A model generated the notes under the pieces. It saw nothing but the letters and a program-made list of their open reading frames with translations, ran no database searches and had not been told where the DNA came from. DNA of 64,000 nucleotides from Candidatus Omnitrophota bacterium (GTDB taxonomy: Bacteria; Omnitrophota; Omnitrophia; Omnitrophales; Aquincolibacteriaceae): positions 22,958 through 86,957 of the forward strand of contig CAISGE010000015.1 in NCBI GenBank assembly GCA_903884815.1. Reading direction: 5' to 3'. Positions 10,920 to 55,258 of the stretch are shown here, piece by piece (the first letter of the stretch is position 1; each line of letters starts with the position of its first letter). A program made the translations under genes and the position numbers.

Positions 10920-11012
10920 AAGATTTCTCCTGAGGAATGACGCGAAACCCCTGTCTGGTGATTCGTCATCCACCTGCTAAAACTGTAGCACGAATTCAGA
11001 AAGGGGGGAGAC

Positions 11013-11091
11013 GGGCGGGAAACGTGGAAGGGTGAACGTTGAACGATTGAAAGAAGCGGGTGATGCCTCCGTTAACCGTTCCCCTTTTTTT
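11013..11091. repeat. HPE copy 4 in the divergent region between pilin paralog 1 and the GT-C-like gene
   Basis: GGGCGGGAAACG TGGAAGG GTGAACG TTGAACG ... CCGTTAACCGTTCCCC T7. Confidence 0.7.
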
Positions 11092-11169
11092 ATAAAAGTA
11101 TTCCCCCCGCGGAAGCTCTTGAGTACAATACCCGCGATTTTCTTTTTCTTAAGGTCACGAAAGGCTCTT

Positions 11170-12726
11170 GTGAAAACCCGACATTTGTTTTTATCTTTAA
11201 TGGCTGCTCTGGTTTACGCCTTCGGTCTCACCCCGACTCTCGACCCGGACATGGGGTGGCATTTGGGGACCGGGGAGTGGATTCTCCAACACGGGTTTCC
11301 GAGGACGGATCCTTTTTCCTTCACCGTGGCCGGCCATTTTTGGACTGCTCACGAATGGCTTTCCGAGGTGATCATGCGTCGCCTGTATGGTTTGGGGGGA
11401 TATCCGGCGATGATGATCTCTTTCGCTCTTGTGGGTGTGCTGGTCTTTGGCCTTGTCTACTGGACCTGTCCCCGGAGGCCGTACATTGCCGGGGCCCTTG
11501 CTTTTTTCGCCCTTCTGACGTCCCGTTTTCTCTGGGGTGCCCGCCCGCAGATCTTCAATGTCCTGATGATGGCCGCCTTTCTTCTGCTGATCCAGGGCGT
11601 GAGAATGCGTCGTTTCCACTGGAAGTTCCTCTACACGCTTCCTTTGCTCGTCATGATCTGGGTAAACCTTCACAGCGGGTACCTGCTTGGGCTTGTGGTG
11701 ATGGTCGCTTTTTTGACGGGAGACCTCTTCCAGATCTTTGTACTCCATTCAGAAGAAGGGACCTTGGGAGAAAAAGGTTTGGCGCATTTTTCGGGAATTT
11801 TAATTTTGTGTCTGGCCGCAGTGGGGATGAACCCTACGGGCTATAAGATCCTTCTCTATCCTTTCGAGACCCTTTCCAGCAAGATCATGCAAACGACCAT
11901 TTTGGAGTGGCAGTCGCCGATCTTTCAGCATTGGAACTACTGGCCTTTTCTCGGCGTGATGTCGCTTGGGGCAGCCGCATTTTTACTTTTTCCGCCCAAA
12001 CGCAATATCGCCAATTTTCTGATCTACGCGGGATCCATGGCTATGGGGCTTTTCGCCCGCAGGCACATCCCTTTTTTCGCGGTCGCTGCGATCCCGATGA
12101 TCGCGCTGGCCGTGAGCGAGGGGTTTCCCGTTCCTGCCTGGGTGAACCGGGGGAGTGATGTTGCTCTGACGCAGACCGCAAGAACGTTCCGCTATCTTTT
12201 GAACGTGTTTTTTGCGATGGTCATTTTGGTGGGTGTCTTTTCCTGGACGGGGTATCGCTTGAATCATAATCCATCCGCGATGGAAAAATCATTTCCGGTC
12301 AAGGCGTTCCAATTTATCAAGGGCAATGGGGCTATTGCCCGGCTCAGGATCTATAATGAGTACGTCTGGGGTGGGTACCTGATCTGGAACGGTTTCCCGG
12401 TTTTCATGGATGGGCGCGCGGACCTTTACGGGGGTAAATTCTTTTTCGATTACCTTTTCGCGCATGATCTGCGGGGAGGGGCGGTAGGCATTACGCGCTA
12501 TCTCGACAGCTATGGTGTCGACGGGATCCTCGTTCCTCCGGGAGGAATTTTGGGGAATGCTTTTCTCTCGAATCCGGAATGGCGGCTTGCCTACCGGGAT
12601 TCCACCGCCGTTTTATTTCTTCGCAAGGTGCCTTTTTCCGTACCTCCCGTGACCCAGAGTCCGGAGCGTTTCTATTCGCCGCTGAAAAGTAATAATCTTG
12701 AGGGGCCGAGGCGCCCTCATTCATGA
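11170..12726 (+). CDS. polytopic membrane protein, GT-C-like (unknown function), paralog A
   Basis: GTG start chosen to align with paralog B (24 aa before the DPDMGWHL loop). Many TM helices. C-terminal soluble domain with NEYVWGGYLIWNGFPVFMDGR. Confidence 0.55.
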   Translation: MKTRHLFLSLMAALVYAFGLTPTLDPDMGWHLGTGEWILQHGFPRTDPFSFTVAGHFWTAHEWLSEVIMRRLYGLGGYPAMMISFALVGVLVFGLVYWTCPRRPYIAGALAFFALLTSRFLWGARPQIFNVLMMAAFLLLIQGVRMRRFHWKFLYTLPLLVMIWVNLHSGYLLGLVVMVAFLTGDLFQIFVLHSEEGTLGEKGLAHFSGILILCLAAVGMNPTGYKILLYPFETLSSKIMQTTILEWQSPIFQHWNYWPFLGVMSLGAAAFLLFPPKRNIANFLIYAGSMAMGLFARRHIPFFAVAAIPMIALAVSEGFPVPAWVNRGSDVALTQTARTFRYLLNVFFAMVILVGVFSWTGYRLNHNPSAMEKSFPVKAFQFIKGNGAIARLRIYNEYVWGGYLIWNGFPVFMDGRADLYGGKFFFDYLFAHDLRGGAVGITRYLDSYGVDGILVPPGGILGNAFLSNPEWRLAYRDSTAVLFLRKVPFSVPPVTQSPERFYSPLKSNNLEGPRRPHS

Positions 12727-12741
12727 GATCCCATTAAATCT

Positions 12742-14241
12742 ATGACGAAGCGATCGATCTTATTCCTGTTTTTCGTGACGGTTCTCTTCTGCCTGGGGTT
12801 GGTGGAGACGGTGGATTCGGACCTTTGGTGGCATTTGAAGGTGGGTGAATCCGTTTTTACCCACGGGATCCCTCGCGTGGATATTTTTTCATTTACGGCG
12901 GTGGGGCAGCGTTTCATTGATCAGGAGTGGTTGTCTGAAGTGCTCCTTTATTTGATGAACGCCTGGGCCGGAATGCCGGGGCTGATGATCTCTTTCGCGT
13001 TTCTTTCGGTGATCACGTTTGGATGCGTCTATTTCACACGGGCCGGTCTCCCGCTAGTGGGGATCCCGATGACGATCCTCGCGTGTTATTCCTCCAAATT
13101 TCTATGGCAAGCCCGGCCGCAGATCTTCAATATTCTCATGCTCGCCGCGTTGCTCTGGCTCCTTCAAGGCGTTCGGGACCGGAAAAGATCCTGGAGATGG
13201 CTTTACGTGCTTCCGGTCTTGTCGCTTTTTTGGGTCAATATGCACAGCGGGAACTTGATGGGGATCGTGGTGATGGCTCTGGTGCTTGCCTGCGATGCTT
13301 TCCAGGGGGGAGTGCTTCATTCGCGGGCTGAAGGTATCCTCCGGGGCGTCGAAATCAAACATTTTGCCGTCGTTTTTTCTCTCTCCGTGCTGGCATCTCT
13401 TTGCAATCCGGTGGGGTATAAGATCTTCGTTTTTCCTCTTCAGACCCTAAGCACTAAAGAGATACAGTCTTTTATCATGGAATGGCAGTCCCATGATTTT
13501 CACAATCCGTTCGCGTGGGGATTCCTGGTGATGCTCGTGGCCGGTGCGATGAGCCTCATGTTATTTCCGAAGAGGTTGGACCTGGCCACCGCGTTTCTGT
13601 ATGCCGGCTCCATGGCCGGAGCGCTCATGTCGCGCCGTCATTCGCCTTTCTTTTCCGTGGTTGCGACTCCCGTGATGATCCAGATGATCTCAAGCGGGAT
13701 CACTTCCGCCCGGTGGCGGGCATTTCTCTCTCTTGAATTCAGTTGGAATTTCCCAAGAGGGGTGCGCTATGGGGTCTTTTCGCTTCTCGCGGGTTTGATC
13801 TTCGTCGGTTCCTTTGTCTGGAGCCAGCACAAGATCGCGGGATATCATCGCTCGATCTCGCAGTATTTTCCCGTGAAGGCGGTGGAGTTGCTCAAGGGGA
13901 GAGGGTACTCCCCAAAAAGGGTCCTCAACGAATATGCCTGGGGCGGGTATTTGATCTGGAACGGTTTTCCTGTTTTTATTGACGGGCGCACGGAGGTCTA
14001 TGGCGCGCAATTTTTCAAGGATTATTTGGACACGATGGGTTCAAGGGAGTTCTCACCCAAGGTTCGGGGACAGTTGGACCGTTGGGGGATTGAGTATTGC
14101 CTTCTCAATGCACGAAGCCCGCTGCGCAATGCCTTGAAAATGACCGGCGAGTGGCAGGAAGTGTATCAAGATGGCTTGTCCAGCATCGTGATCCGAAAAC
14201 CTCTTCCGCCGGGTTCTGCGGTCAAGCCGGAGGGAAAATGA
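12742..14241 (+). CDS. polytopic membrane protein, GT-C-like (unknown function), paralog B
   Basis: Clear paralog of the preceding gene. Shared blocks: DSDLWWHL, QEWLSEV, FLWQARPQIFN, HSGNLMG, NEYAWGGYLIWNGFPVFIDGR. Confidence 0.55.
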   Translation: MTKRSILFLFFVTVLFCLGLVETVDSDLWWHLKVGESVFTHGIPRVDIFSFTAVGQRFIDQEWLSEVLLYLMNAWAGMPGLMISFAFLSVITFGCVYFTRAGLPLVGIPMTILACYSSKFLWQARPQIFNILMLAALLWLLQGVRDRKRSWRWLYVLPVLSLFWVNMHSGNLMGIVVMALVLACDAFQGGVLHSRAEGILRGVEIKHFAVVFSLSVLASLCNPVGYKIFVFPLQTLSTKEIQSFIMEWQSHDFHNPFAWGFLVMLVAGAMSLMLFPKRLDLATAFLYAGSMAGALMSRRHSPFFSVVATPVMIQMISSGITSARWRAFLSLEFSWNFPRGVRYGVFSLLAGLIFVGSFVWSQHKIAGYHRSISQYFPVKAVELLKGRGYSPKRVLNEYAWGGYLIWNGFPVFIDGRTEVYGAQFFKDYLDTMGSREFSPKVRGQLDRWGIEYCLLNARSPLRNALKMTGEWQEVYQDGLSSIVIRKPLPPGSAVKPEGK

Positions 14242-23725: not shown

Positions 23726-24070
23726 TTAAAGGCCGCATACCGATACGTCCAAACTTATTGTCTTTTCTATGCCGGTAAGCCCAAGATCGGCCCAACTAGC
23801 CTCATTAGAGTCTTGAGAATCATCCGTGGGATGCGAAACAATTATTGTTGCTCCATCTTGAAGTATATTGGGAAGCAGATAGGTTCCATGGAAGTCGTAG
23901 TATCTTTCCGCTGCGCGCTTCATGGCGCCCACCATTTGAAATGCTTCGGCGGCTTTGGCTTTTTCGGTTTGCATCAGCATGCGCGGCACGATAAGCGATG
24001 CCAGGATAGCGATGATCACGACCACGATCAATACCTCGACAAGCGTGAATCCTCTTTGCCTGTTTTTCAT
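23726..24070 (-). CDS. type IV pilin-like protein, paralog 2 (C-terminally truncated, probably frameshifted)
   Basis: MKNRQRG then FTLVEVLIVVVIIAILASLIVPRM. Only 114 aa versus 166-187 for the paralogs. A +2-frame ORF (23598..23795) continues downstream. Confidence 0.6.
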   Translation of the reverse strand: MKNRQRGFTLVEVLIVVVIIAILASLIVPRMLMQTEKAKAAEAFQMVGAMKRAAERYYDFHGTYLLPNILQDGATIIVSHPTDDSQDSNEASWADLGLTGIEKTISLDVSVCGL

Positions 24071-24194
24071 AAGCTTCCTCCTTGGGAATGACGCAAAATT
24101 ACTATCTAGAGATTCGTCATTTACCCAAGAAAACTATAGCATATGTTCGGAGGGTGGGGGCCGGAAGGCGAGGACGCCAGGGACGTTCTCCCTA

Positions 24195-34813: not shown

Positions 34814-34890
34814 CGCGGGCAAGGGGGAACGGGGAACGCCAAACGTTTTAGATATTGTTCACAGTTTGCCGTTGCCCTTCGTTTTTTATT
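34814..34890. repeat. HPE copy between convergent genes
   Basis: GCGGGCAAGG GGGAACG GGGAACG CCAAACG ... GTTTGCCGTTGCCCTTCG T6. Confidence 0.65.
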
Positions 34891-35659
34891 TCTTCTTCGA
34901 TTTCGTGTGAACCGCTTCCGCGATTATCTTGTGTATCGCCTGCCGGTTCCTTTGCTGGATTTCCCTCACGTTCTTCTGAGCTTTTTTGAGCGCGGCCTGT
35001 TTCTCTCTGCGCTCCTGAGGATCTTTGGCGGCTTTCAGATCTGTCTGAAGCTGGAGGATATCCCTTTTGAGGCTGCTTACGGTCATGGAGATCGTTCCGC
35101 CTTCCGTGATCACCGCGGTGGAGGCGGAAGTCATCGATGAGCCGACGCCTGCCGGAAGATCACCCGCTGTAAGATCTCCCAGAACCAGGGATACATTCTC
35201 GCTGATGTTGATCGTGACCCCTTCGGGGATGCGTAGGGTATCAGAAGCCAGGACGCCTTGTCCCTTGATCTCTAAAATGCCGTTCGCAGGGAGCTTGTCG
35301 AGAGCGCTCTGGATGTCGTCGTGGATATCGATGACAGTATGAGGAGAAAGGGTTTCAATTCCTTTTGGCCCGACCGTGGGGGTCGACTTTACGGCATATT
35401 CCATCCCAATGCTTGGGGTTTCAGCCTGCTCAGGTCTGACCATCTCCGTGCCTTCTATTGTGGAAGGTGAAAGAGGGGATTCCTGGGTATCATAATTGGA
35501 TGTAGACGGCCCCGCCTTCTTTTCCGCAGCCGGAACGGCTCGGAGCATTGAATCTCCCTTCGCGGGTGCGGGTGATGTATCCGCCGCCCAGCCGGTAAGG
35601 CTGAGGCTCGTCGAGAGCATTGCCGTCATTATCACAGCCAAAAAAACGATTTTTTTCAT
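34886..35659 (-). CDS. secreted hypothetical protein
   Basis: Signal peptide MKKIVFLAVIMTAMLSTSLSLTGWA. Lys-rich, coiled-coil-like C-terminus. Confidence 0.5.
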   Translation of the reverse strand: MKKIVFLAVIMTAMLSTSLSLTGWAADTSPAPAKGDSMLRAVPAAEKKAGPSTSNYDTQESPLSPSTIEGTEMVRPEQAETPSIGMEYAVKSTPTVGPKGIETLSPHTVIDIHDDIQSALDKLPANGILEIKGQGVLASDTLRIPEGVTINISENVSLVLGDLTAGDLPAGVGSSMTSASTAVITEGGTISMTVSSLKRDILQLQTDLKAAKDPQERREKQAALKKAQKNVREIQQRNRQAIHKIIAEAVHTKSKKK

Positions 35660-36094
35660 TCGAAACTCCTTTTACTTATATCTTATAAAGAATATCTTAA
35701 GTCAAGGCTAACCCATGGAACGGTTTATTGCAAGGCCTCGATGTGATTTTTTTGGGGGGGTATAGCTGAGATATACGCATTTTAAAGTGGTTTAAGGAGC
35801 GGGACTTTCGTGGATATGGGTCAGGTGCGTCATCTGGGCGCAACGGGGGGGCTGGCTTGAGATTCTTCCGCAAAATACGCTTCAAGATGACAACCGGTAC
35901 TTGGAAGGTTAAATTTTTGCAAGGCCACTGTCTGAACGAGAGGGAAGGAACGCGTGGCTGAATGAGAGGCCCCGGTATGAGACCTGGGAGCTATCGGGAT
36001 GCGGTCCTCTAAAACAACGCCCCGGAGTTTTCTTTAAAATCCGAAGGAAACGAAAACTCCACAAGAGTTCATAGAAATGTCGGCCGTCTGCTTA

Positions 36095-36592
36095 TTAATC
36101 AACCCGGCAGGGATTTGAAGCATTGTCGGTTGCAAGAAGCCCTAAACAAGAATAGGAGGGGGCATTAGAACCGACAACACTCAAAGACATGTAAGCATAC
36201 GTTAAAGGGTCGCTGCTCGGATATGACATGAATACGAGGGTATAGGCGGTCGACGTAGAAGTGAGAGAATAGTAAAAATCTCTCGATTGTTGCATGTCAC
36301 TGTTAGAGATTCCGGCGGGCTGGAAGTCACCGGAGATTTGACCAGCACTGTTCGAACTATAACTTATGAACGGCGGAAAATACCACGCGCTGGCGGTCGG
36401 AAACTGGCCTGTTCTGTCATATTTACCGTCCAGGGTTCGTCTCATGAGGCCGATCATTTGGAAGGCGGCCCCGATTTTGGCCCTTCCAATTTGGCTGGTC
36501 ATGCGCGGCACGATCACCACGGCGAGAGTGGTAATGATGACGAGCACGATCAATATCTCCACCAGAGTGAAACCCTTTTTCATGTCTCTCAT
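36095..36592 (-). CDS. type IV pilin-like protein, paralog 3
   Basis: MRDMKKG then FTLVEILIVLVIITTLAVVIVPRM. Track start 36610 is a TTG artefact; the ATG follows a GGGAGAG RBS. Confidence 0.75.
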   Translation of the reverse strand: MRDMKKGFTLVEILIVLVIITTLAVVIVPRMTSQIGRAKIGAAFQMIGLMRRTLDGKYDRTGQFPTASAWYFPPFISYSSNSAGQISGDFQPAGISNSDMQQSRDFYYSLTSTSTAYTLVFMSYPSSDPLTYAYMSLSVVGSNAPSYSCLGLLATDNASNPCRVD

Positions 36593-36761
36593 GTCTCTCT
36601 CCCTTTTCAAAAGAAGTCTCTCGGCCCGCTCAAATCATCGCCGTGGTCCCACTAGAACTGTAACACATATCCGCGGAATTGGGGGCGGCGACTGTCCTTA
36701 AATCAAGACGGGGAATCGGCGCTTTAATGTTCCAATACCCACGATTTGAAGCACGGCTTGA

Positions 36762-36989
36762 TCACCTCGCCAGGCGCTGTCTCTCTTTCAGGAGCATTTC
36801 CTTCATCTCCTGAGGCAATTTTTCAAAATCCGGAGGAAGGGGCGGCAGGCCTTTCGCGATCTCCTCGCGCGTTCTCGGGTCCCGGTGCTTCGCCGTGAAA
36901 TGCGGCATAAGCGCGAAGAGCAGCGCGCAAACGCAGACACCCAGGATCACCCATTTTTTTACGGAAACTCCCTCAAAGTTCTCAGTCAT
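36762..36989 (-). CDS. small single-TM membrane protein (75 aa) between pilin paralogs
   Basis: MTENFEGVSVKKWVILGVCVCALLFALMPHF. A degenerate copy lies after the next pilin. Confidence 0.4.
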   Translation of the reverse strand: MTENFEGVSVKKWVILGVCVCALLFALMPHFTAKHRDPRTREEIAKGLPPLPPDFEKLPQEMKEMLLKERQRLAR

Positions 36990-37005
36990 GACCGTCGTCT
37001 CCTGT

Positions 37006-37518
37006 TTAGCTGAGGTCGCATGGATTTGCAGAGCTCGAGTAAGTAACAAGCCCGCTACACATATAGGTGGTAACGATATTGCCGCTCGAAAAAACCGACC
37101 CGGCGCCCACGGAAGCATACGTTGAAGGGTCGTATGAGCCCGCGGTGGAGAAGGAGATCGAACTGCTTGAGGTGGTAGACGAAAAATTAAAGTTAAAATT
37201 TTTGATTTGCTGAACGTCGTAGTTCGACACCCCCAGGACTAGAAAGTTGCCCGAGCTGGAGCTGGCATGATCAATCCCGCCCGAATCCGTGTATGCCGGA
37301 AACCAAGTCGCGGCGCCGGAAGGTGGATAGTACCCATGCGTGCTGGCATAGTTTGCAAGGTTGCGTCTCATGATCCCGAATAGCTGCATGGGTTGCGCGA
37401 GTTTGGCCCTTGCGATTTGGCTGGTCATGTGCGGTACGATCATCGCTGCGAGAGTGGAAATGATGACGATCACGATCAATACCTCCACCAGAGTGAAACC
37501 CTTTTTCATGTCTCTCAT
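37006..37518 (-). CDS. type IV pilin-like protein, paralog 4
   Basis: MRDMKKG then FTLVEVLIVIVIISTLAAMIVPHM. Ser/Thr-rich C-terminal half. Confidence 0.75.
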   Translation of the reverse strand: MRDMKKGFTLVEVLIVIVIISTLAAMIVPHMTSQIARAKLAQPMQLFGIMRRNLANYASTHGYYPPSGAATWFPAYTDSGGIDHASSSSGNFLVLGVSNYDVQQIKNFNFNFSSTTSSSSISFSTAGSYDPSTYASVGAGSVFSSGNIVTTYMCSGLVTYSSSANPCDLS

Positions 37519-37689
37519 GTCTTTCTCCCTTTTCAAAAAAGGCTTTCCGCCTTCTCAAATCATCGTCGTGCTCCCATTAAAACTGTAACACATATCCGCG
37601 GAATTGGGGGCGTCGGCTCTCCTTAAATTAAGACGGAGGATCGGCGCTTTGATGCCCCCATTCCTATCAGCCGAAGCATTGCTTGATCG

Positions 37690-37800
37690 GTTTGCTACGT
37701 GGTGAACTGCGGCATAGGCGCGAAGACCAGCGTGCAAACGCAGACACCCAGGATTACCCATTTTTTCACGAAAACTCCCTCAAAGTTCTCAGGCTTGACC
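37690..37800 (-). pseudogene. decayed duplicate of the 75-aa small membrane protein gene (start ATG->AAG, premature stop)
   Basis: About 90% nucleotide identity with 36880..37000. Translates VKPENFEGVFVKKWVILGVCVCTLVFAPMPQFTT then stop. Confidence 0.45.
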
Positions 37801-37812
37801 GCCGTCTCCTGT

Positions 37813-38334
37813 TTAGATAATCTCGCAGCGAGAAGAATCATTTTTGGCGTAAGTAAAAAGCCCGCTACACATAGCGGAAGTGTTCATGCTACTGGTAATG
37901 GGGTTAAACCAAGTTGAGACGCCCATGTAAGCGTATGCTGGATCACCCCACGGGGCTACGGAATAGAAGGAGAGCCAGCTGGATGTGGAGGAACTGGAAA
38001 AAGAAAAGTTAAAATCGTTGATTTTCTGCATGTCGTTGTTGGAAACCCCCAGGACTAGAAAGTTGCCCGAGCTGGAGCTGCCATGATAAGTCCCGCCCGA
38101 ATCCGTGTACGCCGCAGAATAAGACGCGGAGCCGGAAGTCGGATAGTACCCATGCGCCGTGTAATAGGTTTCAAGGTTGCGTTTCATGATGCCGAATAGC
38201 TGTGTGGGTTCCGCGAGTTTGGCCTTTGCGATTTGGCCGGTCATGCGCGGCACGATCGCTGCGGCGAGAATGGCAATGATGACGAGCACGACCAATACCT
38301 CCACAAGCGTGAAACCCTTCTTCATGTTTTTCAT
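37813..38334 (-). CDS. type IV pilin-like protein, paralog 5
   Basis: MKNMKKG then FTLVEVLVVLVIIAILAAAIVPRM. Track start 38667 is an over-extension; ATG at 38334 follows a GGAG RBS. Confidence 0.75.
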   Translation of the reverse strand: MKNMKKGFTLVEVLVVLVIIAILAAAIVPRMTGQIAKAKLAEPTQLFGIMKRNLETYYTAHGYYPTSGSASYSAAYTDSGGTYHGSSSSGNFLVLGVSNNDMQKINDFNFSFSSSSTSSWLSFYSVAPWGDPAYAYMGVSTWFNPITSSMNTSAMCSGLFTYAKNDSSRCEII

Positions 38335-38617
38335 AGCACTTCTCCTTTCAAAAGAAGACCAGACTGCTCTTCCGATCATCATCGTCAACCACCCGCAATA
38401 ACTATAGCACATATCCGGAGAATGGGGGGGGAGGCGGGTAACGGAATCAAGGGGGTTATTCGGCTCCCCCGGGCCTCGATCCTTCCAGTACCGGACACTC
38501 TCCGGAGTCCCTGGCACTGGAACTTCTTCGGAAGACGGGGTATTGCGAAGGGGGTTATTCCGCATTTCCCGTTTCCCGTTCACCCTTCGTTTCGATTGTG
38601 CTACAATCCCGCTCCTT

Positions 38618-41533: not shown

Positions 41534-42007
41534 TTAAATCGTGCAGCCTTTTGTGGACATGTTAGGATCGCTGTCGGGCTCAACGGCTTTGAATACTTCA
41601 AAGCAAATCCAGATCCCGGAGCCGTTGGCATCCACGTAAGCTAGCCAATTGGTAGCGGTCTCGTCGTACGCTTGGACTGAGAGGTAGCTATGAAAACCAT
41701 AGTACACATATTTCCACGCTTTTGATTTCTCAATACCCGTAAGCCCCAGATCCGCCCAATCGCCCAGAGGAGTCCCCCAAGGGTCCGACTGAATATAAGT
41801 TCCGCTGGGAGCGTCATAACTTCCGTGAAAGTCGTAGTATCTTTCCGCGGCGCGCTTGATGGCGCCGATCATCTGGATAGCCTCGGCGGCTTTTGCTTTT
41901 TCGGTCTGCATGAGCATGCGCGGGACGATAAGCGAGGCGAGGATGGCGATAATAACGACCACGATCAGAACCTCAACGAGGGTGAAGCCCTTTTTTTGAT
42001 TTTTCAC
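41534..42007 (-). CDS. type IV pilin-like protein, paralog 6
   Basis: VKNQKKG then FTLVEVLIVVVIIAILASLIVPRM. GTG start after an AGGAG RBS. Ends KGCTI. Confidence 0.75.
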   Translation of the reverse strand: MKNQKKGFTLVEVLIVVVIIAILASLIVPRMLMQTEKAKAAEAIQMIGAIKRAAERYYDFHGSYDAPSGTYIQSDPWGTPLGDWADLGLTGIEKSKAWKYVYYGFHSYLSVQAYDETATNWLAYVDANGSGIWICFEVFKAVEPDSDPNMSTKGCTI

Positions 42008-42064
42008 AGTTCCTCTCCTTATTCGGGATGATACAGTAACACCTGATATTGCTTCGTCATTCAC

Positions 42065-42105
42065 TTGAAAAAACTATAGCATATATTCGGAGAGTTGGGG
42101 GTGGC
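42065..42105 (-). promoter_or_regulatory. conserved pilin promoter/leader element with extended -10 (TGCTATAGT), copy at paralog 6
   Basis: Gene orientation: CCCCCAACTCTCCGAATATATGCTATAGTTTTTTCAA. Near-identical elements at ~10977, 24092, 36640, 37565 and 38385. Confidence 0.5.
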
Positions 42106-42198
42106 AGCGAAGCGGGAGCTGAAAGCATTGACGGTAAGGGGGGGAGCGGTTAAAATACGGCCGCTTTTAAAACCATCACCCATTAAGGAGAAATAAAA

Positions 42199-42510
42199 AT
42201 GGCTTATGTTATTACAGAGAAATGCCACGGCGAACGTTACGGTCTTTGCGCCGGGGTTTGCCCCGTCGAAGCGATCTTCCCGGGGACTTATCAGGGGAAA
42301 GATTTCATGGTGATCGATCCGGCGCTTTGTATTTCCTGCGGCGCGTGCGCGGCGGAATGTCCCGTGGGCTCGATCGTTGAGTCTGAAGATATGGATGCGG
42401 CCTACGCCAAGATCAACGCCGAACTTGCTGACAAGTTCCGGTCCAATCCCAAGGTGACGCCTCGCTCGAAGGATGAGGCCCCCAAGAAAGCCGGAAATAC
42501 GCTGAAATAA
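42199..42510 (+). CDS. 2x[4Fe-4S] ferredoxin
   Basis: CAGVCPVEA and CISCGACAAECP. 103 aa. Confidence 0.8.
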   Translation: MAYVITEKCHGERYGLCAGVCPVEAIFPGTYQGKDFMVIDPALCISCGACAAECPVGSIVESEDMDAAYAKINAELADKFRSNPKVTPRSKDEAPKKAGNTLK

Positions 42511-42609
42511 AAAAATACGTTGGAGTATTCCTTGCTTGCCTCCCCCGGGACCCGGGGGAGGCAAGCTTGTCTTTGAAGGTTCATCACCGTTATCGATAAG
42601 GAACTCGAG

Positions 42610-43197
42610 ATGTCCTCCGCTTCCGGCTGCAAAGATCCCACCATCCTGGAACAGGCTCTCAAGGAATATGCCGCAGATCTTGCCGCCGAGAACTCCGCCA
42701 TCCGGGTCGTGATGCGAGGCTTGTCTTTGGTCGGAATCGGCATTCGCCCTGTCTTGGACCACCTGATCTTCCGCACTGTTCACCTCAAGGAAAGAGCGCG
42801 TGAATTTATGGAGTTGGGGTATGAGAGGGATCTTACGGCCAAAGTTCTTGAGCATCGGGGACACGGCGTCGAGGTCCTTCGGCGAGGATGCGCGCCGGCG
42901 ATCCTGGTTGAACATCCCCGTGAAAAGGCTGGATTAGATTGGGTGTCCCATTTCGGGGATAAAACCCCCTATGTGATGGCCATTCGGGTGGACGATATCG
43001 AAGATGCGGCGTTCCATCTAGAGAAGCAGGCGGTGGCTTTTTTAAGGCCTCCGGCCGGGAAACACGGGGACATTCTTCGTGAGATCGCCACAGTTCCCAA
43101 TATGAAGGACGCCCGTCCCGCAAGTTATCTTGTTTTGGTCGAACGGCACGCCGGCGATTCGCGTTTTTACGCGCCGGATTTTTGGATCAACGCTTAA
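42610..43197 (+). CDS. hypothetical protein, VOC/glyoxalase-like fold suspected
   Basis: DHLIFRT...YVMAIRVDDIEDAAFHL resembles VOC beta-alpha-beta-beta-beta modules. Weak. Confidence 0.35.
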   Translation: MSSASGCKDPTILEQALKEYAADLAAENSAIRVVMRGLSLVGIGIRPVLDHLIFRTVHLKERAREFMELGYERDLTAKVLEHRGHGVEVLRRGCAPAILVEHPREKAGLDWVSHFGDKTPYVMAIRVDDIEDAAFHLEKQAVAFLRPPAGKHGDILREIATVPNMKDARPASYLVLVERHAGDSRFYAPDFWINA

Positions 43198-47348: not shown

Positions 47349-47546
47349 ATGGAACAGAAAATTATGAAAAACAGAAAAACGCAGATCGAAGCAAGCAATG
47401 GAAGCTACAACCCGGAAATGTTTCCTTGCCGCTCAGGGGACGCCGCGAAAAAATATCTGACGAACTCATCTCTTAGCTGGAGCCCCGCAAACGCATCCGC
47501 CGTTTCGGGGCAATTCAAATTCTCAAAGGGGGCTCGAAAAAAATGA
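47349..47546 (+). CDS. small basic ORF (65 aa) translationally coupled (ATGA) to the giant gene; may not be real
   Basis: MEQKIMKNRKTQIEASNGSYNPEMF... Stop overlaps the start of the 1394-aa gene. AT-rich codon usage. Confidence 0.25.
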   Translation: MEQKIMKNRKTQIEASNGSYNPEMFPCRSGDAAKKYLTNSSLSWSPANASAVSGQFKFSKGARKK

Positions 47547-50500
47547 AGACCATCCAGGCAAATAAAGTCATCGCGATCACGGTCGCGCTCAGTCTGGCAT
47601 TTTTCCAGATCGTCCCTGCCGGACTTGCCGCGGGGAAGACTAATCCCAGCGATTTGACTGCCCAGACGGGTGTGTCCGGTTCCGTTGATCCACTGGCCAA
47701 AACACAGGTGACGACACCGGCCGTGATTCCCGCCAATTTTTTGATGCACACAGGAGGGATTACTAAGGCGACCCCAACGACGATCCCGACGGCTGCCACC
47801 GTTGCCACGAATCTGTCGAGCAGGATCCCGGCTACGATCCGGGATTATGTCACGAAAGTTCAGGCCTTAGGATTCAAGGTAGAGGTAAGCGCGATCGCTA
47901 AAACTCAACCTCCGCAATATATCGTCAAGATGACTGATACGAAAAACTATGCCGTCACGCCGGTGGGGAACGTGAAAAGCGCCAGCATCACTCTGTTTGC
48001 CGACAGCACAGGGACTCTGCAGGTCCTTACGGAAAAGATCACCGTGACTTGCTACAGCGCCAAAGGCGGAGACACCCAGGTGAATGGCGAGCTTCTCTAT
48101 GAGGGCCTCCGGCAAATATCGGCCCAGCCCGCGTTCACCATGCTTCAGGTCAAAGTATCCAATAGCACAACCTCGGGCATGATGGTGACTTACCAGGGCT
48201 ATCAATACACGATCCAGCAGAGCAAGGACAAAAAGGTCACGACGGTCACTCCGATGATGCCCCTCGCCGTGACGAATCATATTACCTCGCTTCAGAATGC
48301 TGCGACCGGTTATACCGTGACCGCGGCTTACATCCCGGGGACTCATCCGCCGCAGTACCAGGTCGATGTCTCGGATAACAAGGCGTACTATGTTGCCCCG
48401 GTAGGGCCACTTTATGCGATGAGCTATATCCTCAGAGGCGACGGAATCGTGGACTCGAAATCCGTTTCGGCTGCGTATTACGGAATCCAGGATGACGCGA
48501 AAGTCGTCGGCCCGCTGCTTTACGAGGCGATGGGCGTCTGCCCCGAGGGACAGATATGCAAGATGGTGGCGACGAGTCCGATCGACCTTCTGAAGACACT
48601 GACGACGATCAGCGTTACAAAGGTCGAGACAAGCCCGATCTACACGGTCCATTTCACAACCACAGACGGAAAGTATTACAAGACCTACCGCGACGCGGCC
48701 GGGAAAGTGATCGTGATTGATGAAGTGGAGGCTTTACGCGCCCAGATTATGGCAAGCACCACGGCGGAGATCGTAAAGGTCATGGCCGAGCTCGCGGATC
48801 ATGAGGCAAAGCTTGCGCTTCAGCTTGCGGAATGGGAAAAGAATGTCACCCAACTGAAAGCGGATCTTGCGGCGGGGCGGGGGAACGCGGACGCAATCAG
48901 CGGGGCGGTCACGAGCTATCTGGATCAGGCAGGCGTCAGCGATGCTCTGAAAAATGAGATTCAGGGATATCTGACAAGGAGCGGAAGCTTGCTTGACGGG
49001 CTTAATGCCGCTGAAGAACAGTACGCGGCCTTTTTGAAGACGGGGGCCCGGACGACCGGGCTCGCGATAGACAACGCGAAGGCCTATCTTGCGGCTCTCC
49101 AGAATCACGAGGGGAAGGTCTCGGCCGCAAAAACAACCGAGGAATTAGCGTTGCTGACAGACCTGCCCGCCCGGAGGGCGCGGATGCCCAAAACAGTGAT
49201 GCCTCCTCCGGTGGAGGACCCGCGACTTGCTCTGAATGCGCTCGTCGAGGAAGGGAAGCTGTTAAAAGAAAAGCTGGAGGCCCTTCCGCCTCTCGCGGTC
49301 CGGGTGTTTTCGGCCCAGCTGAATACACTGCTGAACCCGGCCGGTGCAAAGAGCTTCAATATCACGGAACCGGCATTGCAGGCTGACGGGACTTATCTCG
49401 TAACCGTCAGCGACGACATTTCTCACTTGATCACGCCAACAAGTGGTTTTGAGAAAATGAGTTTCAACGTTGACGTGACGGGCAAGCTCATCCCCGCTTC
49501 GCTCGATGCTTCCTATTACGGCATCAAGCAAGTGGTCGACGGACAGCTGCTTTATGAAGGGATGAAGCTTATGGAAGAAACAGGAACCCCGGAGGGTGCG
49601 GAGGTCCGTGTCCTGGCCCGGATGGCGGCAGTCAGTGTCATCGCGGTGGTTGGTGACGCGATCTCTTTTTCTCTGACTGGAAAATATTACAAAATTTTCC
49701 GAGATGCGAATGAGCAGGTGAAGCTTGAAGCGGTGCAGACTCCGGTTACCCCGAAAATCTCTGATCAGCCCACTGGAAATCCAGAGCCGCCTCCCGCTCC
49801 GCCCGAGAGTAGTGTGGATGTTGCCACGATGCCTTTTGGGGACGGGGCAGTGGCGATCGTCAAGATCACCGATTTCCCAAGCAACAATGTTTCTTATTTC
49901 GCGAAGATCAGGGACACGAATGGCGTGGTGATCAAACAATATCAGATCGATCGCGGGGACTATACGCCTTCCGTCAGTAATTCTTCTTACGGAACTTATT
50001 ACACCTTGGCATTCAAAACCGTGGATGGAACCAGGGTCACGGTCCAACAGCTCTCAACAAGCACACCGAGCAGCACCATCGATGAAATGACCGTCGTCAA
50101 TTTCACAGGGATCGGGGATGTGTACGTCACGCAAAGTTATTCGCTCTCCCCTCAAGGACAGTGGGTCGAAACCTCTTACTCCCCAAGTTATTTTAAGACA
50201 GAAAGTGTCTGGAGTTCCAGATATAGCAGTTTGGTAAGCGTGCAATCGACTTACGTCATGGGGCCCAACGGTCTCGTCGTGAGGAACAAGAGCATCTATC
50301 CTTATTCCTATCCGGGCGGTGTTTTCACGTATCCGTTTATTCAGGAGATTACCTATGTGAATGGAGTCGCAGCCCGCGCCTCTATTTACGGATCGAATGC
50401 AACTTCGCCGGCCAATTACCTTTATTTCGACGGGTCGAAGGTCTCCGTGACCCTGGCAAGCGGTGCGCGGCAAGACTATCTCCTGAGTTCGCCGTCCATA

Positions 50501-51727
50501 GTGGAGGATTCCGAAGGTTTTGTGACGATCTCCGCGGACACAACGGTGAACGGCAAGAATTACAAGATTCAATTTGATAATGCCGGCGAGATTACGCTTT
50601 ACGAATACCCGGTTTTCGGGATTTCGGCATCCACCAAGCTCGGAGGAGCGGCCAATCTTTGGGTGAATGTCGGCGGGGATGGGAACGCAACCGTAGTCCT
50701 GGACGGCAACACCTACGCAGGGATCTTTGATCCGGTCACTAGATCGGTCTTTCTCTCCATCCCCGTCACTGGTGATGTACCCGCGCGCGAAATTTTCTTT
50801 GATTTCGAGAATGTGGACGGCGTGTACAGTCTGGTTTCTCTCTGGGATGCGACACTTTATTCAGCTTCCCTTGAAAGTGATCATGTTTATATGTTTAGGA
50901 GGGGTGAGGTGGTCCAGACGGTAGAGACGGAGGAATATTATTGGTACTTGTACACAAACAGCGTCCTGGAAGGCCAAGTTCTCCCATTGGGCGCGTATAA
51001 GTATGTGGATTCGATCACAGGCCGGAATGTATCCGGATCCATATTGTTGGTAAGTTCCGGAGACATCGCGCTGCCCCCCCCGACACTTCCCGATCAGGAG
51101 AACCTCCAGATCGTTCCGGACCCCTCGGGAGAAGGCTACCAGATCGAAGGGTCGGGTGTCATGGCCGGAGAGTCTTACGAGATCACGGGCCACGCCAGCG
51201 GAACGGATCCGGAAATGATCGGTATCCTGCTGACTTTTCGAGATGCCCAGGGACGTGTTGATCGGGAGGTCATGGAAATGCGAAGGCGAAGTGATGCGTC
51301 ATCCGAAGTGAACTATAATGAGATAATTTACTCGTTACCTACGGATATGACTTTCGAAGCAAGGCCCGCGACTGTCCCTTCCCCTGGCACAATTTCCCAG
51401 GATTATTCCGGAAATGTGCCTGTGTCAACCTGCGCTATATGTACGATTTCCACCGAAATACACGTCGCGGGCGGCTTTTGGGATCCCGTGGATGACTCAG
51501 TGCCAAAACATTCGAGACTTCCGTTTGGGATGCGTAATCCTCTTACCCCGGAACAAAGGCGTGCGGGCCGGGAAGAGTTTTACAAACTGCCCCTCAGAGT
51601 AGTGGCCGGACCTGTCGTCACCGTTGTCGAAGCCTGTCAAGCCGTAAAATCCGGATATAAACAAGCTGCATCGTTTTTTATGAGTGTATTGAAAGAAGCT
51701 GTGCAGAGCCCCACGCTCATTCCCTAA
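47543..51727 (+). CDS. giant secreted protein (1394 aa) with a novel ~90-aa module repeated three times, a central coiled coil, and Ser/Thr/Tyr-rich beta C-terminal half
   Basis: Signal peptide MKTIQANKVIAITVALSLAFFQIVPAGLAA. Repeat signature PPQY...YYG...G.LLYEGM at aa ~101-190, 247-330 and ~585-671. AAGGGGG RBS. Confidence 0.7.
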   Translation: MKTIQANKVIAITVALSLAFFQIVPAGLAAGKTNPSDLTAQTGVSGSVDPLAKTQVTTPAVIPANFLMHTGGITKATPTTIPTAATVATNLSSRIPATIRDYVTKVQALGFKVEVSAIAKTQPPQYIVKMTDTKNYAVTPVGNVKSASITLFADSTGTLQVLTEKITVTCYSAKGGDTQVNGELLYEGLRQISAQPAFTMLQVKVSNSTTSGMMVTYQGYQYTIQQSKDKKVTTVTPMMPLAVTNHITSLQNAATGYTVTAAYIPGTHPPQYQVDVSDNKAYYVAPVGPLYAMSYILRGDGIVDSKSVSAAYYGIQDDAKVVGPLLYEAMGVCPEGQICKMVATSPIDLLKTLTTISVTKVETSPIYTVHFTTTDGKYYKTYRDAAGKVIVIDEVEALRAQIMASTTAEIVKVMAELADHEAKLALQLAEWEKNVTQLKADLAAGRGNADAISGAVTSYLDQAGVSDALKNEIQGYLTRSGSLLDGLNAAEEQYAAFLKTGARTTGLAIDNAKAYLAALQNHEGKVSAAKTTEELALLTDLPARRARMPKTVMPPPVEDPRLALNALVEEGKLLKEKLEALPPLAVRVFSAQLNTLLNPAGAKSFNITEPALQADGTYLVTVSDDISHLITPTSGFEKMSFNVDVTGKLIPASLDASYYGIKQVVDGQLLYEGMKLMEETGTPEGAEVRVLARMAAVSVIAVVGDAISFSLTGKYYKIFRDANEQVKLEAVQTPVTPKISDQPTGNPEPPPAPPESSVDVATMPFGDGAVAIVKITDFPSNNVSYFAKIRDTNGVVIKQYQIDRGDYTPSVSNSSYGTYYTLAFKTVDGTRVTVQQLSTSTPSSTIDEMTVVNFTGIGDVYVTQSYSLSPQGQWVETSYSPSYFKTESVWSSRYSSLVSVQSTYVMGPNGLVVRNKSIYPYSYPGGVFTYPFIQEITYVNGVAARASIYGSNATSPANYLYFDGSKVSVTLASGARQDYLLSSPSIVEDSEGFVTISADTTVNGKNYKIQFDNAGEITLYEYPVFGISASTKLGGAANLWVNVGGDGNATVVLDGNTYAGIFDPVTRSVFLSIPVTGDVPAREIFFDFENVDGVYSLVSLWDATLYSASLESDHVYMFRRGEVVQTVETEEYYWYLYTNSVLEGQVLPLGAYKYVDSITGRNVSGSILLVSSGDIALPPPTLPDQENLQIVPDPSGEGYQIEGSGVMAGESYEITGHASGTDPEMIGILLTFRDAQGRVDREVMEMRRRSDASSEVNYNEIIYSLPTDMTFEARPATVPSPGTISQDYSGNVPVSTCAICTISTEIHVAGGFWDPVDDSVPKHSRLPFGMRNPLTPEQRRAGREEFYKLPLRVVAGPVVTVVEACQAVKSGYKQAASFFMSVLKEAVQSPTLIP

Positions 51728-52415: not shown

Positions 52416-55145
52416 CTATTTGCAACTCGGATTTTTTCTCTCAGTCATCGGGTCGCCGGTTTTTTCAATGGGGCCCTTGAGATCCGTGACTTGCGCGGGC
52501 GCTAGAAGGAGCGACCCCAGCTCGAAGTCCGCGTAAGGGTCAGAGACAGCGATATAGTTGAAGGTGTAGCGGATATAGGGAGGGATGGGGATCTCGTAGA
52601 TATGCCACTCCCGGTCCGGGGGGATAACGAGCGGGATCTTTTCCCCGAGGAGTTGGTCGGATTCATGTTTTAGTTCGATATGGAAGCATTGGCAGGCATT
52701 GTCCGTGGCGTTGCGGACTTTGATATAGATATACCGGAATTTCGAAAGATTCGTGTAAGGAATATACCCGCCGCGCCATCCCGAGCCGCCCGAAAAGCGG
52801 TAGGTCCCACGCAGCGCGTCCCTCTGGAAGGGAAGGTCGCCGTGGCTTAAGCGCCAGTACCGGATCAATTCCAGTTCCGTGTCATCCTGGGGATTATTCT
52901 TGTAGGGCGGTTCCGGAACGTCCGTGAACGGGAATTTTTTATAGAGGGCGATCTCTTTGAGAACGATCGTCCCTTCGCGGCCGCCCCGGCTCATTTCACC
53001 CAACAGGTAGCGCGGATCATGGATCGCCACCGAAATATAGTTGAAAGGCTTGTCATCCGATTCCGGGATTGGCGTGATTCTCTCTACGAAAGTCTTCCAT
53101 TTTCCATCCTGAGAGATTCGTCCCGGTTTGGCGGTATTCACGACCACGGTGGCAAGGGTGATGTCGTCACTTTTGATCTCAAGCTCGTAGATGCCAGGGG
53201 GATTGAGAAGCGGCAGAGTGAGCATCACATAGCGCATGTCCGCGATGCGAACGGCCTTGTCCACATAGGTTCCCCGGAAAGCCCACTGGTCAAAGTAGGC
53301 GTAATAAGCCGGGATCTCGAATTCGAATTGAAAGGGTTGGCCCGGCTGGATATCCTGCTCGAGCGTTTTCTGGCCGACGGAGCGGACATTTTTTCCGTGC
53401 AAATGTCCCGGCTGAAGATGGGCGATCACATCATAGATCTCGCCAGCATCGGGTGGTTTCTGGAAATTGACCTGGATCACCTCTTCGGGAGGCGCGGGAA
53501 ATGGCTTGGAGGGGAAAAAAATCGGCCGATTATCGCGCGTCGCCATCATTTGCTTGTACTTCGCGTGCATGAGATCGATCAGCTTGACGTTCATGGGGAT
53601 CCCGGTTCCGGGAACGGTGCGTTCGCGGAGGTATTTATTGATCTCGTCGACCACGCCTCCGCTGGAGGCCAGGAGGGTCATGCCCTTGGCGTCGGCGGTG
53701 AAAATGTCCGCATAGCCGTCCCGGCCCACGGATTCATAACCGCCGTACGGCGTGAGGAAATTTTTAAAAGCGTAGAACTTGATCAGCCAGGACGCACCCA
53801 CGGAAGGGGAGATCAGCATTGCCATGGCGGTCGCGAAAAGCACGGCCACGTCGGTCCTGTCCACTTTTTCATACGCGATCGAGTCGATCCCCATCTGTCG
53901 ATAGATCCCTTTGGGGTCATAAGCCGTGCTGATGAAACCCGGGAGGTGGTTTCTGTGGGCGTGGTCCGCTTGGGCGTAGAGATAATTTTGATAAAGCGGT
54001 GCAAGGGCCGATTCCATGAAAGGAAGGTAAGCGAGGGCCCAGTGCTCATGGAAGGAGGCCCGGAATCCCGCGAGGGTCGTGATCTTTTCCCCCGATTCGG
54101 TGATGTATTCGATCGTGGGGATTTCCAAGTTGTCCCAGGCCTCTTCCGGGATTTGGCCGTGAAGCACACCCCACAGCACGGCGAGGGTTCCCTCGAACAT
54201 GTCGTTTAGGTAGTAAGTCTTATCCCCGCTCCATTCGCGCGCTTCGGTGTCATATTGAATGGTGCCGTGAAGTAGCTTGAGCTTTGGATCGTAGAATTTT
54301 TTGTAGCTTTGCCCGTGAAGGAACTTTTGGGCCATGCTCGCGATCTTGCGGAGCTCCGGGTCACTTGAGTCCTCAAAAGCGGCGACGACGGCGGCCAGCG
54401 CCCAGGTCATTTGGCCGTTATCAAGCGAAGGGACTTTGGTGGAGGCCGGCGCAATCGTTCCGTTCGGACGGATGTCGACCCAAGGGAGAAATCCGCCGTA
54501 GTCGGGATATTTTTCGGAATAGTTCAAAAGAGTTCTGAGGGTCTGTCTCAACTTGACGGTAGCTTCTTCGGGGGTGATCTTTACCTGGCGAAGATAGGGA
54601 TTTTTCTGAATGATCTTCATAAGAAAAGGGATCATGAGAGAAAGCTTTGAGGCAGCGGTATAATTGCCGACCTCGCTGAGCAGGTTCTCCTTAAGCCGTA
54701 TCCGGATATGGTCATAAGGCATCCCGGTATGAGAGTCCATGCCGATACCCGCCTGAAAGTAAGCGGCCTCGGAGGGGATCAGTGTTTCTTCCAGAAAAAG
54801 ACGCGCGACATCGGAAAGCGGCTGGGTCTGGCTAAGGGTGTAAAAGTCTGGCTCCGAGACAATATAATCGGGCTCTCCCGTCAAGACCTCTTGCGGGCCC
54901 CGGATCATATTGGGCGGTAAGGGGCCTCGCAGCACGAGGGAGCCGGGTTTGTAATAGAGGGGCGCTGGTTTTTTCTCAGATGGCGCTCCGGGGGCTTCCT
55001 GTGTTGAGGGCTTGGGCAAGGGGATCTCCGGAGGTACGTCCAGGGTTGTATCCTTGGAGGGGGCGGCCCATCCGGTGGGAACATTCAATAGGAGGCTTGC
55101 GACAATCCAAAGACAGATTATTTTTTTTGGGTGTTTTTGGGCCAT
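52416..55145 (-). CDS. large secreted protein (909 aa), possible (alpha/alpha)6 glycoside-hydrolase-like domain
   Basis: Signal peptide MAQKHPKKIICLWIVASLLLNVPTGWA. Central region rich in W/Y, reminiscent of six-hairpin glycosidases. Weak. Confidence 0.45.
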   Translation of the reverse strand: MAQKHPKKIICLWIVASLLLNVPTGWAAPSKDTTLDVPPEIPLPKPSTQEAPGAPSEKKPAPLYYKPGSLVLRGPLPPNMIRGPQEVLTGEPDYIVSEPDFYTLSQTQPLSDVARLFLEETLIPSEAAYFQAGIGMDSHTGMPYDHIRIRLKENLLSEVGNYTAASKLSLMIPFLMKIIQKNPYLRQVKITPEEATVKLRQTLRTLLNYSEKYPDYGGFLPWVDIRPNGTIAPASTKVPSLDNGQMTWALAAVVAAFEDSSDPELRKIASMAQKFLHGQSYKKFYDPKLKLLHGTIQYDTEAREWSGDKTYYLNDMFEGTLAVLWGVLHGQIPEEAWDNLEIPTIEYITESGEKITTLAGFRASFHEHWALAYLPFMESALAPLYQNYLYAQADHAHRNHLPGFISTAYDPKGIYRQMGIDSIAYEKVDRTDVAVLFATAMAMLISPSVGASWLIKFYAFKNFLTPYGGYESVGRDGYADIFTADAKGMTLLASSGGVVDEINKYLRERTVPGTGIPMNVKLIDLMHAKYKQMMATRDNRPIFFPSKPFPAPPEEVIQVNFQKPPDAGEIYDVIAHLQPGHLHGKNVRSVGQKTLEQDIQPGQPFQFEFEIPAYYAYFDQWAFRGTYVDKAVRIADMRYVMLTLPLLNPPGIYELEIKSDDITLATVVVNTAKPGRISQDGKWKTFVERITPIPESDDKPFNYISVAIHDPRYLLGEMSRGGREGTIVLKEIALYKKFPFTDVPEPPYKNNPQDDTELELIRYWRLSHGDLPFQRDALRGTYRFSGGSGWRGGYIPYTNLSKFRYIYIKVRNATDNACQCFHIELKHESDQLLGEKIPLVIPPDREWHIYEIPIPPYIRYTFNYIAVSDPYADFELGSLLLAPAQVTDLKGPIEKTGDPMTERKNPSCK

Positions 55146-55258
55146 GAAAGTCCGTTTCCCTATGTTGAGAGATTCGAATTTTATCATGAGGCAAAGATCC
55201 GCGGGGGAAAACAATTTTTTCAGAATAAACCTCTCGATGGGGTAGAATCCATGGGCGC

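Follow-up and report, generated by a model that had tools for sequence, protein, structure and literature searches.

A tandem array of type IV pilin genes in a Candidatus Omnitrophota bacterium, with a chimeric member and a decayed copy of a small pilin-linked gene

A 64,000-nucleotide (nt) stretch of contig CAISGE010000015.1 from a Candidatus Omnitrophota bacterium (hereafter the window) carries, at 36095-38430 on the minus strand, three complete adjacent type IV pilin genes in the order pil5, pil4, pil3. A small open reading frame (ORF) for a membrane protein, here named S, lies behind pil4, and a damaged copy of it, psiS, lies behind pil5. The locus raises the question of how the array was built, and why the small gene was kept in one unit and lost in another. 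An earlier note on this DNA had proposed a recent tandem duplication of a cassette of small gene plus pilin, followed by decay of one small gene and diversifying selection on the pilins. Our analysis points instead to a history in which the pil4 gene arose as a hybrid of its neighbors.

The pilins, the small ORF, its copy and the promoter-like elements were all found where the earlier note had placed them, on the minus strand (Table 1). The prepilin signature, a basic leader followed by G/FTLVE, occurred in six ORFs of the window, all on the same strand. In the array, the leaders read MRDMKKG/FTLVE or MKNMKKG/FTLVE in 3/3 genes. All three pilins matched PF07963 (N_methyl) at 25-34 bits (cutoff 21.2) and TIGR02532 at 27-35 bits (cutoff 16.3). 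Their pairwise identity was 43-58%, and each, including pil5, has a pair of Cys residues near the C-terminus with a spacing of 13-14 residues, which might form a disulfide. An AlphaFold2 model of pil4 (predicted local distance difference test score 78.7) contained a helix at residues 7-58 and strands at 105-111, 115-122, 132-141 and 144-153. When this model was compared with the PDB using Foldseek, the best neighbors were the gonococcal pilin PilE (5vxx; probability 0.99) and the PAK pilin (1oqw; template modeling score 0.52/0.58). The best-scoring NCBIfam equivalog model was TIGR01710, for the type II secretion system major pseudopilin GspG, with which the array pilins have the class III signal peptide and N-terminal helix in common. 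However, the array pilins matched it over the first ~60 residues only (profile positions 1-62/134), scoring 38-45 bits where the cutoff is 88.85, and GspG was rejected. Because of the C-terminal Cys pair and the structural neighbors PilE and PAK, the three proteins are best regarded as putative type IVa major-pilin-like paralogues, not as a GspGHIJK-type set.

The S gene starts 16 nt past the pil4 stop codon, with its own AGGAG 9 nt before the ATG. The order of the unit is thus promoter, pilin and S, the reverse of the small gene and pilin order first assumed. The inactivation of the copy behind pil5 was borne out, so that one unit has indeed lost the small gene. In psiS the start codon changed from ATG to AAG (37794-37796), K34 became an in-frame TAG stop (37695-37697), and a deletion of about 118 nt, absent from the earlier description, removed the 3' part; the S stop codon (GATCAAGC) is the exact point where homology restarts. 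The two copies were 87% identical over 135 nt (36886-37020 against 37693-37827), near the ~90% originally claimed and above a preset refutation threshold of 70%. Within the coding-equivalent part, 92/105 nt were identical (87.6%, or 12.4% different), and the codon changes comprised 3 synonymous and 10 non-synonymous differences. The translation of psiS was still recognized by a hidden Markov model of the S family (E=5.6e-12). By these lesions psiS is evidently a pseudogene. A 48-amino-acid ORF overlapping it (37695-37841, P0010) is present in public protein sets and has no Shine-Dalgarno (SD) sequence.

The stretch after pil3 is probably a third, almost erased vestige of S, which we hold with moderate confidence and which had likewise gone unnoticed. 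Starting at the pil3 stop codon, it aligns collinearly with the 5' end of S at 33/48 identical nt, and its ATG has become ATT. Its alignment score was reached by 0/1000 shuffles and 0/1902 genomic chunks; the vestige is short, and a null distribution from longer targets has a maximum equal to the observed score.

Self-alignment supported tandem duplication of the pilin and small-gene unit. BLAST aligned 36886-37610 with 37693-38429 (76.7% over 742 nt, E=2e-154) and 36432-36763 with 37358-37688 (83%, E=2e-97). This similarity of whole units is far above chance. The boundaries of the duplicated unit fell within pilin ORFs, however, and not at the ends of a simple cassette. At each site that distinguishes unit 3 from unit 5, we recorded which of the two unit 4 matches. 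The region upstream of pil4 and codons 1-30 (to 37422) matched unit 3 at 52 sites and unit 5 at 8. From 37420 to 37195 the preference was reversed, with 10 matches to unit 3 and 79 to unit 5, and in the pilin 3' end plus S the counts were 11 and 62. The segment 37060-37194 (codons ~106-150) matched neither neighbor (27 against 29 sites). The best breakpoint lay between 37422 and 37414, in codons 30-32 (Fisher p=2e-21, uncorrected for scanning along the sequence). The pil4 gene is thus a chimera, with its upstream region and codons 1-30 from the pil3 unit and its body and S from the pil5 unit. The synonymous divergence (dS) was 0.10 between pil3 and pil4 in codons 1-30, and 0.11-0.15 between pil4 and pil5 in codons 31-105, where the ratio of non-synonymous to synonymous divergence (dN/dS) was 1.1-1.6. 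The similar divergence of the duplicated blocks fits a single event. The pil3 body differed from pil4 and pil5 with dS ~1 or above.

We regard the following explanation, taken as a whole, as probable. The tandem array would have grown from a module of promoter and leader, pilin and S. An older array would have been pil5-S-pil3 with a further S, later lost, behind pil3. One unequal crossover (non-allelic homologous recombination) between pil3 and pil5, within the α1-N coding stretch, would then have produced the hybrid pil4 and a duplicated segment of S plus promoter. A single crossover in a pil5-S-pil3 array predicts just this pattern of a chimeric pil4 and a duplicated S/promoter spacer. One copy of S may have been sufficient, so the upstream copy would have decayed through start loss, stop gain and the 118-nt deletion. 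The variable block of the pilins would have diverged well beyond its flanks by replacement, slippage or selection. Finally, S would act in trans as a putative pilin-associated accessory or regulatory factor of the inner membrane.

The variable block bears most directly on the recent duplication of S plus pilin, with simple decay of one S and diversifying selection, that the earlier note had put forward. Both the duplication and the pseudogene were confirmed, and the C-terminal parts of the pilins are, as it had said, the most diverged segment. A hypervariable block of ~135 nt, part of the β-sheet region of the globular domain in the least conserved C-terminal third, was identical at 56% of nt, where its flanks reached 85-88%. 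The dN/dS above 1 in codons 31-105 would also agree with this scenario. In codons 106-150, however, pil4 and pil5 differed with dS 0.78, dN 0.60 and dN/dS 0.77; raised dS together with such a ratio is unlike point-mutational positive selection, so that diversifying selection was not demonstrated. Segment replacement from another donor, slippage in the S/T-rich sequence, relaxed constraint, selection or alignment error could each have caused the block. The event also does not look recent, since the blocks differ by ~12-15% (dS 0.10-0.15) and, among the public contigs examined, none had a variant arrangement. Given, in addition, unit boundaries inside pilin genes and a chimeric pil4, we consider this scenario unlikely, and prefer the crossover history.

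A second rival reading takes S for an ORF that arose by chance between pilins, and its remnant for duplicated non-coding DNA. A word-indexed search with S returned only S itself, and with 3 synonymous and 10 non-synonymous changes, the divergence of psiS from S looks neutral. Exhaustive HMMER and profile searches with a metagenome scan, however, revealed a small S family of 75-94 amino acids at 39-55% identity, with full-length orthologues in at least five other lineages and a conserved SD ahead of the gene. Among orthologues, dN/dS ranged from 0.05 to 0.38. The pair L013 and L016 had dS 0.40, dN 0.02 and dN/dS 0.05, with 17 synonymous against 3 non-synonymous differences, a sign of strong purifying selection. 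The values were 0.53, 0.10 and 0.18 for L012 and L013, and 2.57, 0.19 and 0.08 for L005 and L012. Because orthologues exist with low dN/dS, S is a real gene under purifying selection; and because they are full-length, the form of 75-80 amino acids would be ancestral and psiS derived by deletion. We give the chance-ORF idea scarcely any credence, as the selection data on orthologues appear already to have refuted it in practice. In these searches S seemed confined to a handful of uncultured bacteria, outside the Pseudomonadota. A 241-amino-acid protein with GLPPLPP repeats (P0012) was rejected as a relative, since only a low-complexity motif matched.

The members of this family, of which the earlier note had made no mention, share an N-terminal M-x-E-N, a transmembrane helix, the motif PLPPxF[DE]K and a basic C-terminal helix. 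S itself has a single hydrophobic segment (residues 13-31), and its AlphaFold2 model places a transmembrane helix at residues 5-32 and a second, C-terminal one at 60-74. The net charge of the flanks is 0 on the N-terminal side and +2 on the C-terminal side, where orthologues reach about +4 (counting K and R). The PLPPxF[DE]K motif and the basic C-terminal part that holds it probably face the cytoplasm.

In all lineages where it was found, S comes immediately after a pilin or the remains of one. L006 has two tandem pilin-S units with both S genes intact, and S begins 17 nt after the pilin there and in the single pilin-S unit of L007; in the pilin-S units of L012 and L013 the spacing is 170-180 nt. 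In L006, a 314-nt block spanning the pilin 3' end and S is 96.5% identical between the units, against 30-68% in the pilin core, so that this locus too is a mosaic. In five further loci (L005, L008, L009, L016 and L017), DivIC is followed by the last pilin codons (..VIGCTI*) and then S, the pilin body being deleted, and L009 retains the promoter element. Because S follows a pilin or its remnant in all lineages, the ancestral module would be promoter-pilin-S, from which either partner can be lost. The deleted-pilin loci lie at 1158-1489 in L009 and 1603-1871 in L016. These divIC/ftsB-S loci lost the pilin and kept S under strong purifying selection, the reciprocal of the S loss in the window. 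In several relatives, S is followed by a secreted protein X of 330-390 amino acids, before ilvBNC (L013 943-2043, L009 1976-3139, L012 1478-2476). Protein X, which lacks a Pfam match, has a Pro/Ala-rich linker ahead of a conserved C-terminal domain. Protein Y of the window (257 amino acids, secreted, 34886-35659), downstream of the array, was considered as its homologue and proved unrelated.

We propose only tentatively that S represents an undescribed bitopic family of ~75-80 amino acids, coupled to type IV pilins in uncultured bacteria, probably of anoxic lakes, and acting in trans. If so, one S copy would serve an expanded pilin repertoire, in stability, sorting, assembly priming or promoter feedback. 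A role in trans would explain the placement behind a pilin promoter, the decay of a redundant copy and the survival of S after pilin deletion.

Several results weigh against the explanation that we favor. S under selection persists where the adjacent pilin is deleted, and a search behind the window's three other pilins gave no S remnants, so the link between S and the pilus could be purely positional. S matched nothing in Pfam, NCBIfam or the PDB (the last searched with the S-family profile), and no PilB/C/D/M-Q or prepilin-peptidase family was matched among the 20 large window ORFs scanned. The dS of 0.78 in codons 106-150 stands against ~0.13 predicted by a single crossover; there, a further event or a low-complexity misalignment is needed. 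The shortness of the vestige after pil3, with its null maximum at the observed score, belongs here as well.

Some of these results agree equally with a function of S outside the pilus, for example in the envelope or in cell division, with ancestral insertion of a pilin between ftsB/divIC and S. Several relatives do show the order eno, DivIC, (pilin), S, secreted protein, ilvBNC, and both the continued purifying selection on S beside a deleted pilin and the window's three S-free pilins are as such a function would have it. On the other hand, S moved and was duplicated with pilins in two lineages, at different genomic sites (the window and L006), its position 16-17 nt after the pilin stop at both implies probable co-transcription, and a pilin tail stays before S where the body is deleted, accompanied in L009 by the promoter element. 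We therefore view a non-pilus role as possible, if doubtful.

The explanation by modules, which we prefer, also draws on the promoter-like element that precedes each pilin. Aligning the six pilin upstream regions defined it as a C-tract, 17 nt, the extended -10-like box TGYTAYAGTT, a leader of ~70 nt and AGGAG. A run of C, and not a TTGACA-like -35 sequence, sits 17 nt upstream of the box. Against an expectation of 0.09, TGYTAYAGTT was found 6 times in the 64 kb, each time ~80 nt before one of the six pilin start codons and nowhere else; the motif ACACATATCCGSGGAATKGGGG occurred 3 times in the array region against 0.00 expected. The pil4 and pil3 upstream elements were 81-89% identical. The element also precedes the L012 pilin, and it looks like a promoter of a pilin regulon or a site for its regulator. 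At the pilin 41534-42064, it falls inside the final codons of the upstream ORF 42061-42915.

Table 1. Features of the pilin array and its promoter-like elements (window positions)
Feature	Position	Strand	Description
pil5	37813-38334	-	173 amino acids; leader MKNMKKG then FTLVE; called as 173 amino acids in L001
pil4	37006-37518	-	170 amino acids; type IV pilin-like; chimera
pil3	36095-36592	-	165 amino acids; type IV pilin-like; most diverged of the three
S	36762-36989	-	75 amino acids; single-pass membrane ORF; intact
psiS	37692-37812	-	Inactivated S copy after pil5; SD retained
Probable third S vestige, 5' end	36047-36094	-	Collinear with S from the pil3 stop; ATG to ATT
pil5 upstream element	38335-38430	-	C-tract, -10-like box TGCTATAGTT at 38400-38409, ~70-nt leader, AGGAG
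pil4 upstream element	37519-37691	-	-10-like box TGTTACAGTT at 37581-37590
pil3 upstream element	36593-36761	-	-10-like box TGTTACAGTT at 36656-36665
TGYTAYAGTT sites	10981-10990, 24132-24141, 36656-36665, 37581-37590, 38400-38409, 42072-42081	-	Motif scan
Terminator-like hairpin, array end	36010-36060	-	GGAGUUUUC...GAAAACUCC then GUUGUUUU; centroid structure; z-score not significant

The pil4 and pil5 leaders contain hairpins with a short GC stem and a U-run just before the SD (37530-37550 for pil4 and 38357-38377 for pil5, minus strand; for example AAGGCGGAAAGCCUUUUUUG), and those of pil1 and pil2 have a different hairpin, AUGACG...CGUCAU. Folding of the six leaders and the hairpin after pil3 gave no common or significant structure (best z ~ -2.1), and the idea of a riboswitch or attenuator was dropped. 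No credible RNA family was found with Rfam, either at the locus at a permissive E-value or in the whole window at gathering thresholds. In the promoter and terminator scan, matches were no commoner than in shuffles, and one terminator-like match within the pil5 coding sequence was not conserved in pil4. A 1565-nt contig from the Joint Genome Institute (JGI; L003, sample 3300012411) is 100% identical to window 37567-36003. Its start falls 15 nt past the pil4 -10-like box, and its end comes shortly after the hairpin and T-run behind pil3; such boundaries would suit assembly of a pil4-S-pil3 transcript.

The array is not an assembly artefact. A 149-kb European Nucleotide Archive (ENA) scaffold matched the window over 10.2 kb at 100% identity, and independent JGI and ENA contigs had the same array arrangement. 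The S protein was identical on 41/41 contigs carrying S, and neighboring genes were essentially alike on the 17 contigs read. Of the four members of the pil4 cluster, one had a single-residue variant and the others differed only in the called start. The arrangement looks fixed in the population.

This uniformity bears on whether the array could be a system of antigenic or phase variation like Neisseria pilE/pilS, driven by high-frequency gene conversion between cassettes. The likeness lies in mosaics from recombination between linked copies, with a breakpoint in the conserved 5' coding region and a hypervariable block within conserved flanks, in the window as in L006. However, 3/3 copies are complete at the N-terminus and carry both an SD and the promoter element, and the array lacks silent, promoterless, 5'-truncated cassettes. 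The population was essentially clonal, with the one pil4 amino-acid variant among four cluster members and no variability of arrangement seen, and a divergence of 10-15% marks the recombination tracts as old. Such a system is very improbable here, and the old unequal crossover remains our preferred reading.

The window is ordinary chromosome, with nuo genes, thiC, ispG, ispH, an mqnC-like radical SAM gene and pfk. Elsewhere in it, the pilin at 23726-24070 (minus strand) is truncated to ~110 amino acids, keeping the N-terminal helix and the promoter element without the β-sheet part, and could be either a short pilin or a pseudogene. The ORFs 47543-51727 (1394 amino acids), 52416-55214 (932), 11032-12726 (564), 12742-14241 (499) and 42061-42915 (284) had no Pfam match at E <=1e-5. 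Species-representative genomes scanned with pil4 and the neighboring M48 peptidase yielded no relative except a 42% Streptosporangium match. A sample label, BUCK21, suggests an origin in the stratified-lake metagenomes of PMC8121793.

The locus cleanly documents the natural growth of a pilin family, which would have passed through crossover, a hybrid, a copied spacer gene and its decay. What is new is a candidate family of unannotated pilin-linked mini-proteins and a pilin-specific promoter-like element, both of which would offer handles on pilus regulation and assembly in organisms with many pilins. The biology is ordinary gene-family turnover, and current understanding is not overturned, since tandem pilin paralogues and pilin-linked accessory genes were already known.

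Among known systems, the S locus comes nearest to the accessory cassettes that accompany type IVa pilin genes in Pseudomonas aeruginosa (pilA with tfpO, tfpW/X, tfpY or tfpZ) and in Dichelobacter (fimA-fimB). TfpY-like proteins are co-regulated with the pilin, act on assembly and stay out of the fiber; TfpX/Y/Z have 170-245 amino acids, three N-terminal transmembrane helices and a periplasmic β-rich domain, and a Rho-independent terminator separates pilin and accessory gene (PMC11841053). The S locus resembles the Tfp and FimB cassettes in having the gene for an inner-membrane protein just downstream of a pilin and travelling with it. By description, however, S is set apart, with 75 amino acids, one transmembrane segment, two short helices in the model and no globular domain. 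The pil4-S spacer also differs, being 16 nt long and holding only an SD, without a terminator in our scan. S does not appear to belong to the TfpX/Y/Z/FimB family, and the parallel is one of position alone.

Tandem major-pilin paralogues that arose by duplication and unequal crossover, such as pilA1/pilA2 in cyanobacteria, provide a further comparison. As in those, the array consists of adjacent complete genes with divergent globular domains, and the conserved coding region of the N-terminal helix would have served as the substrate for recombination. In contrast to those, each copy here has an identical pilin-specific promoter element, and a small co-duplicated gene records the history of the array by its differential decay.

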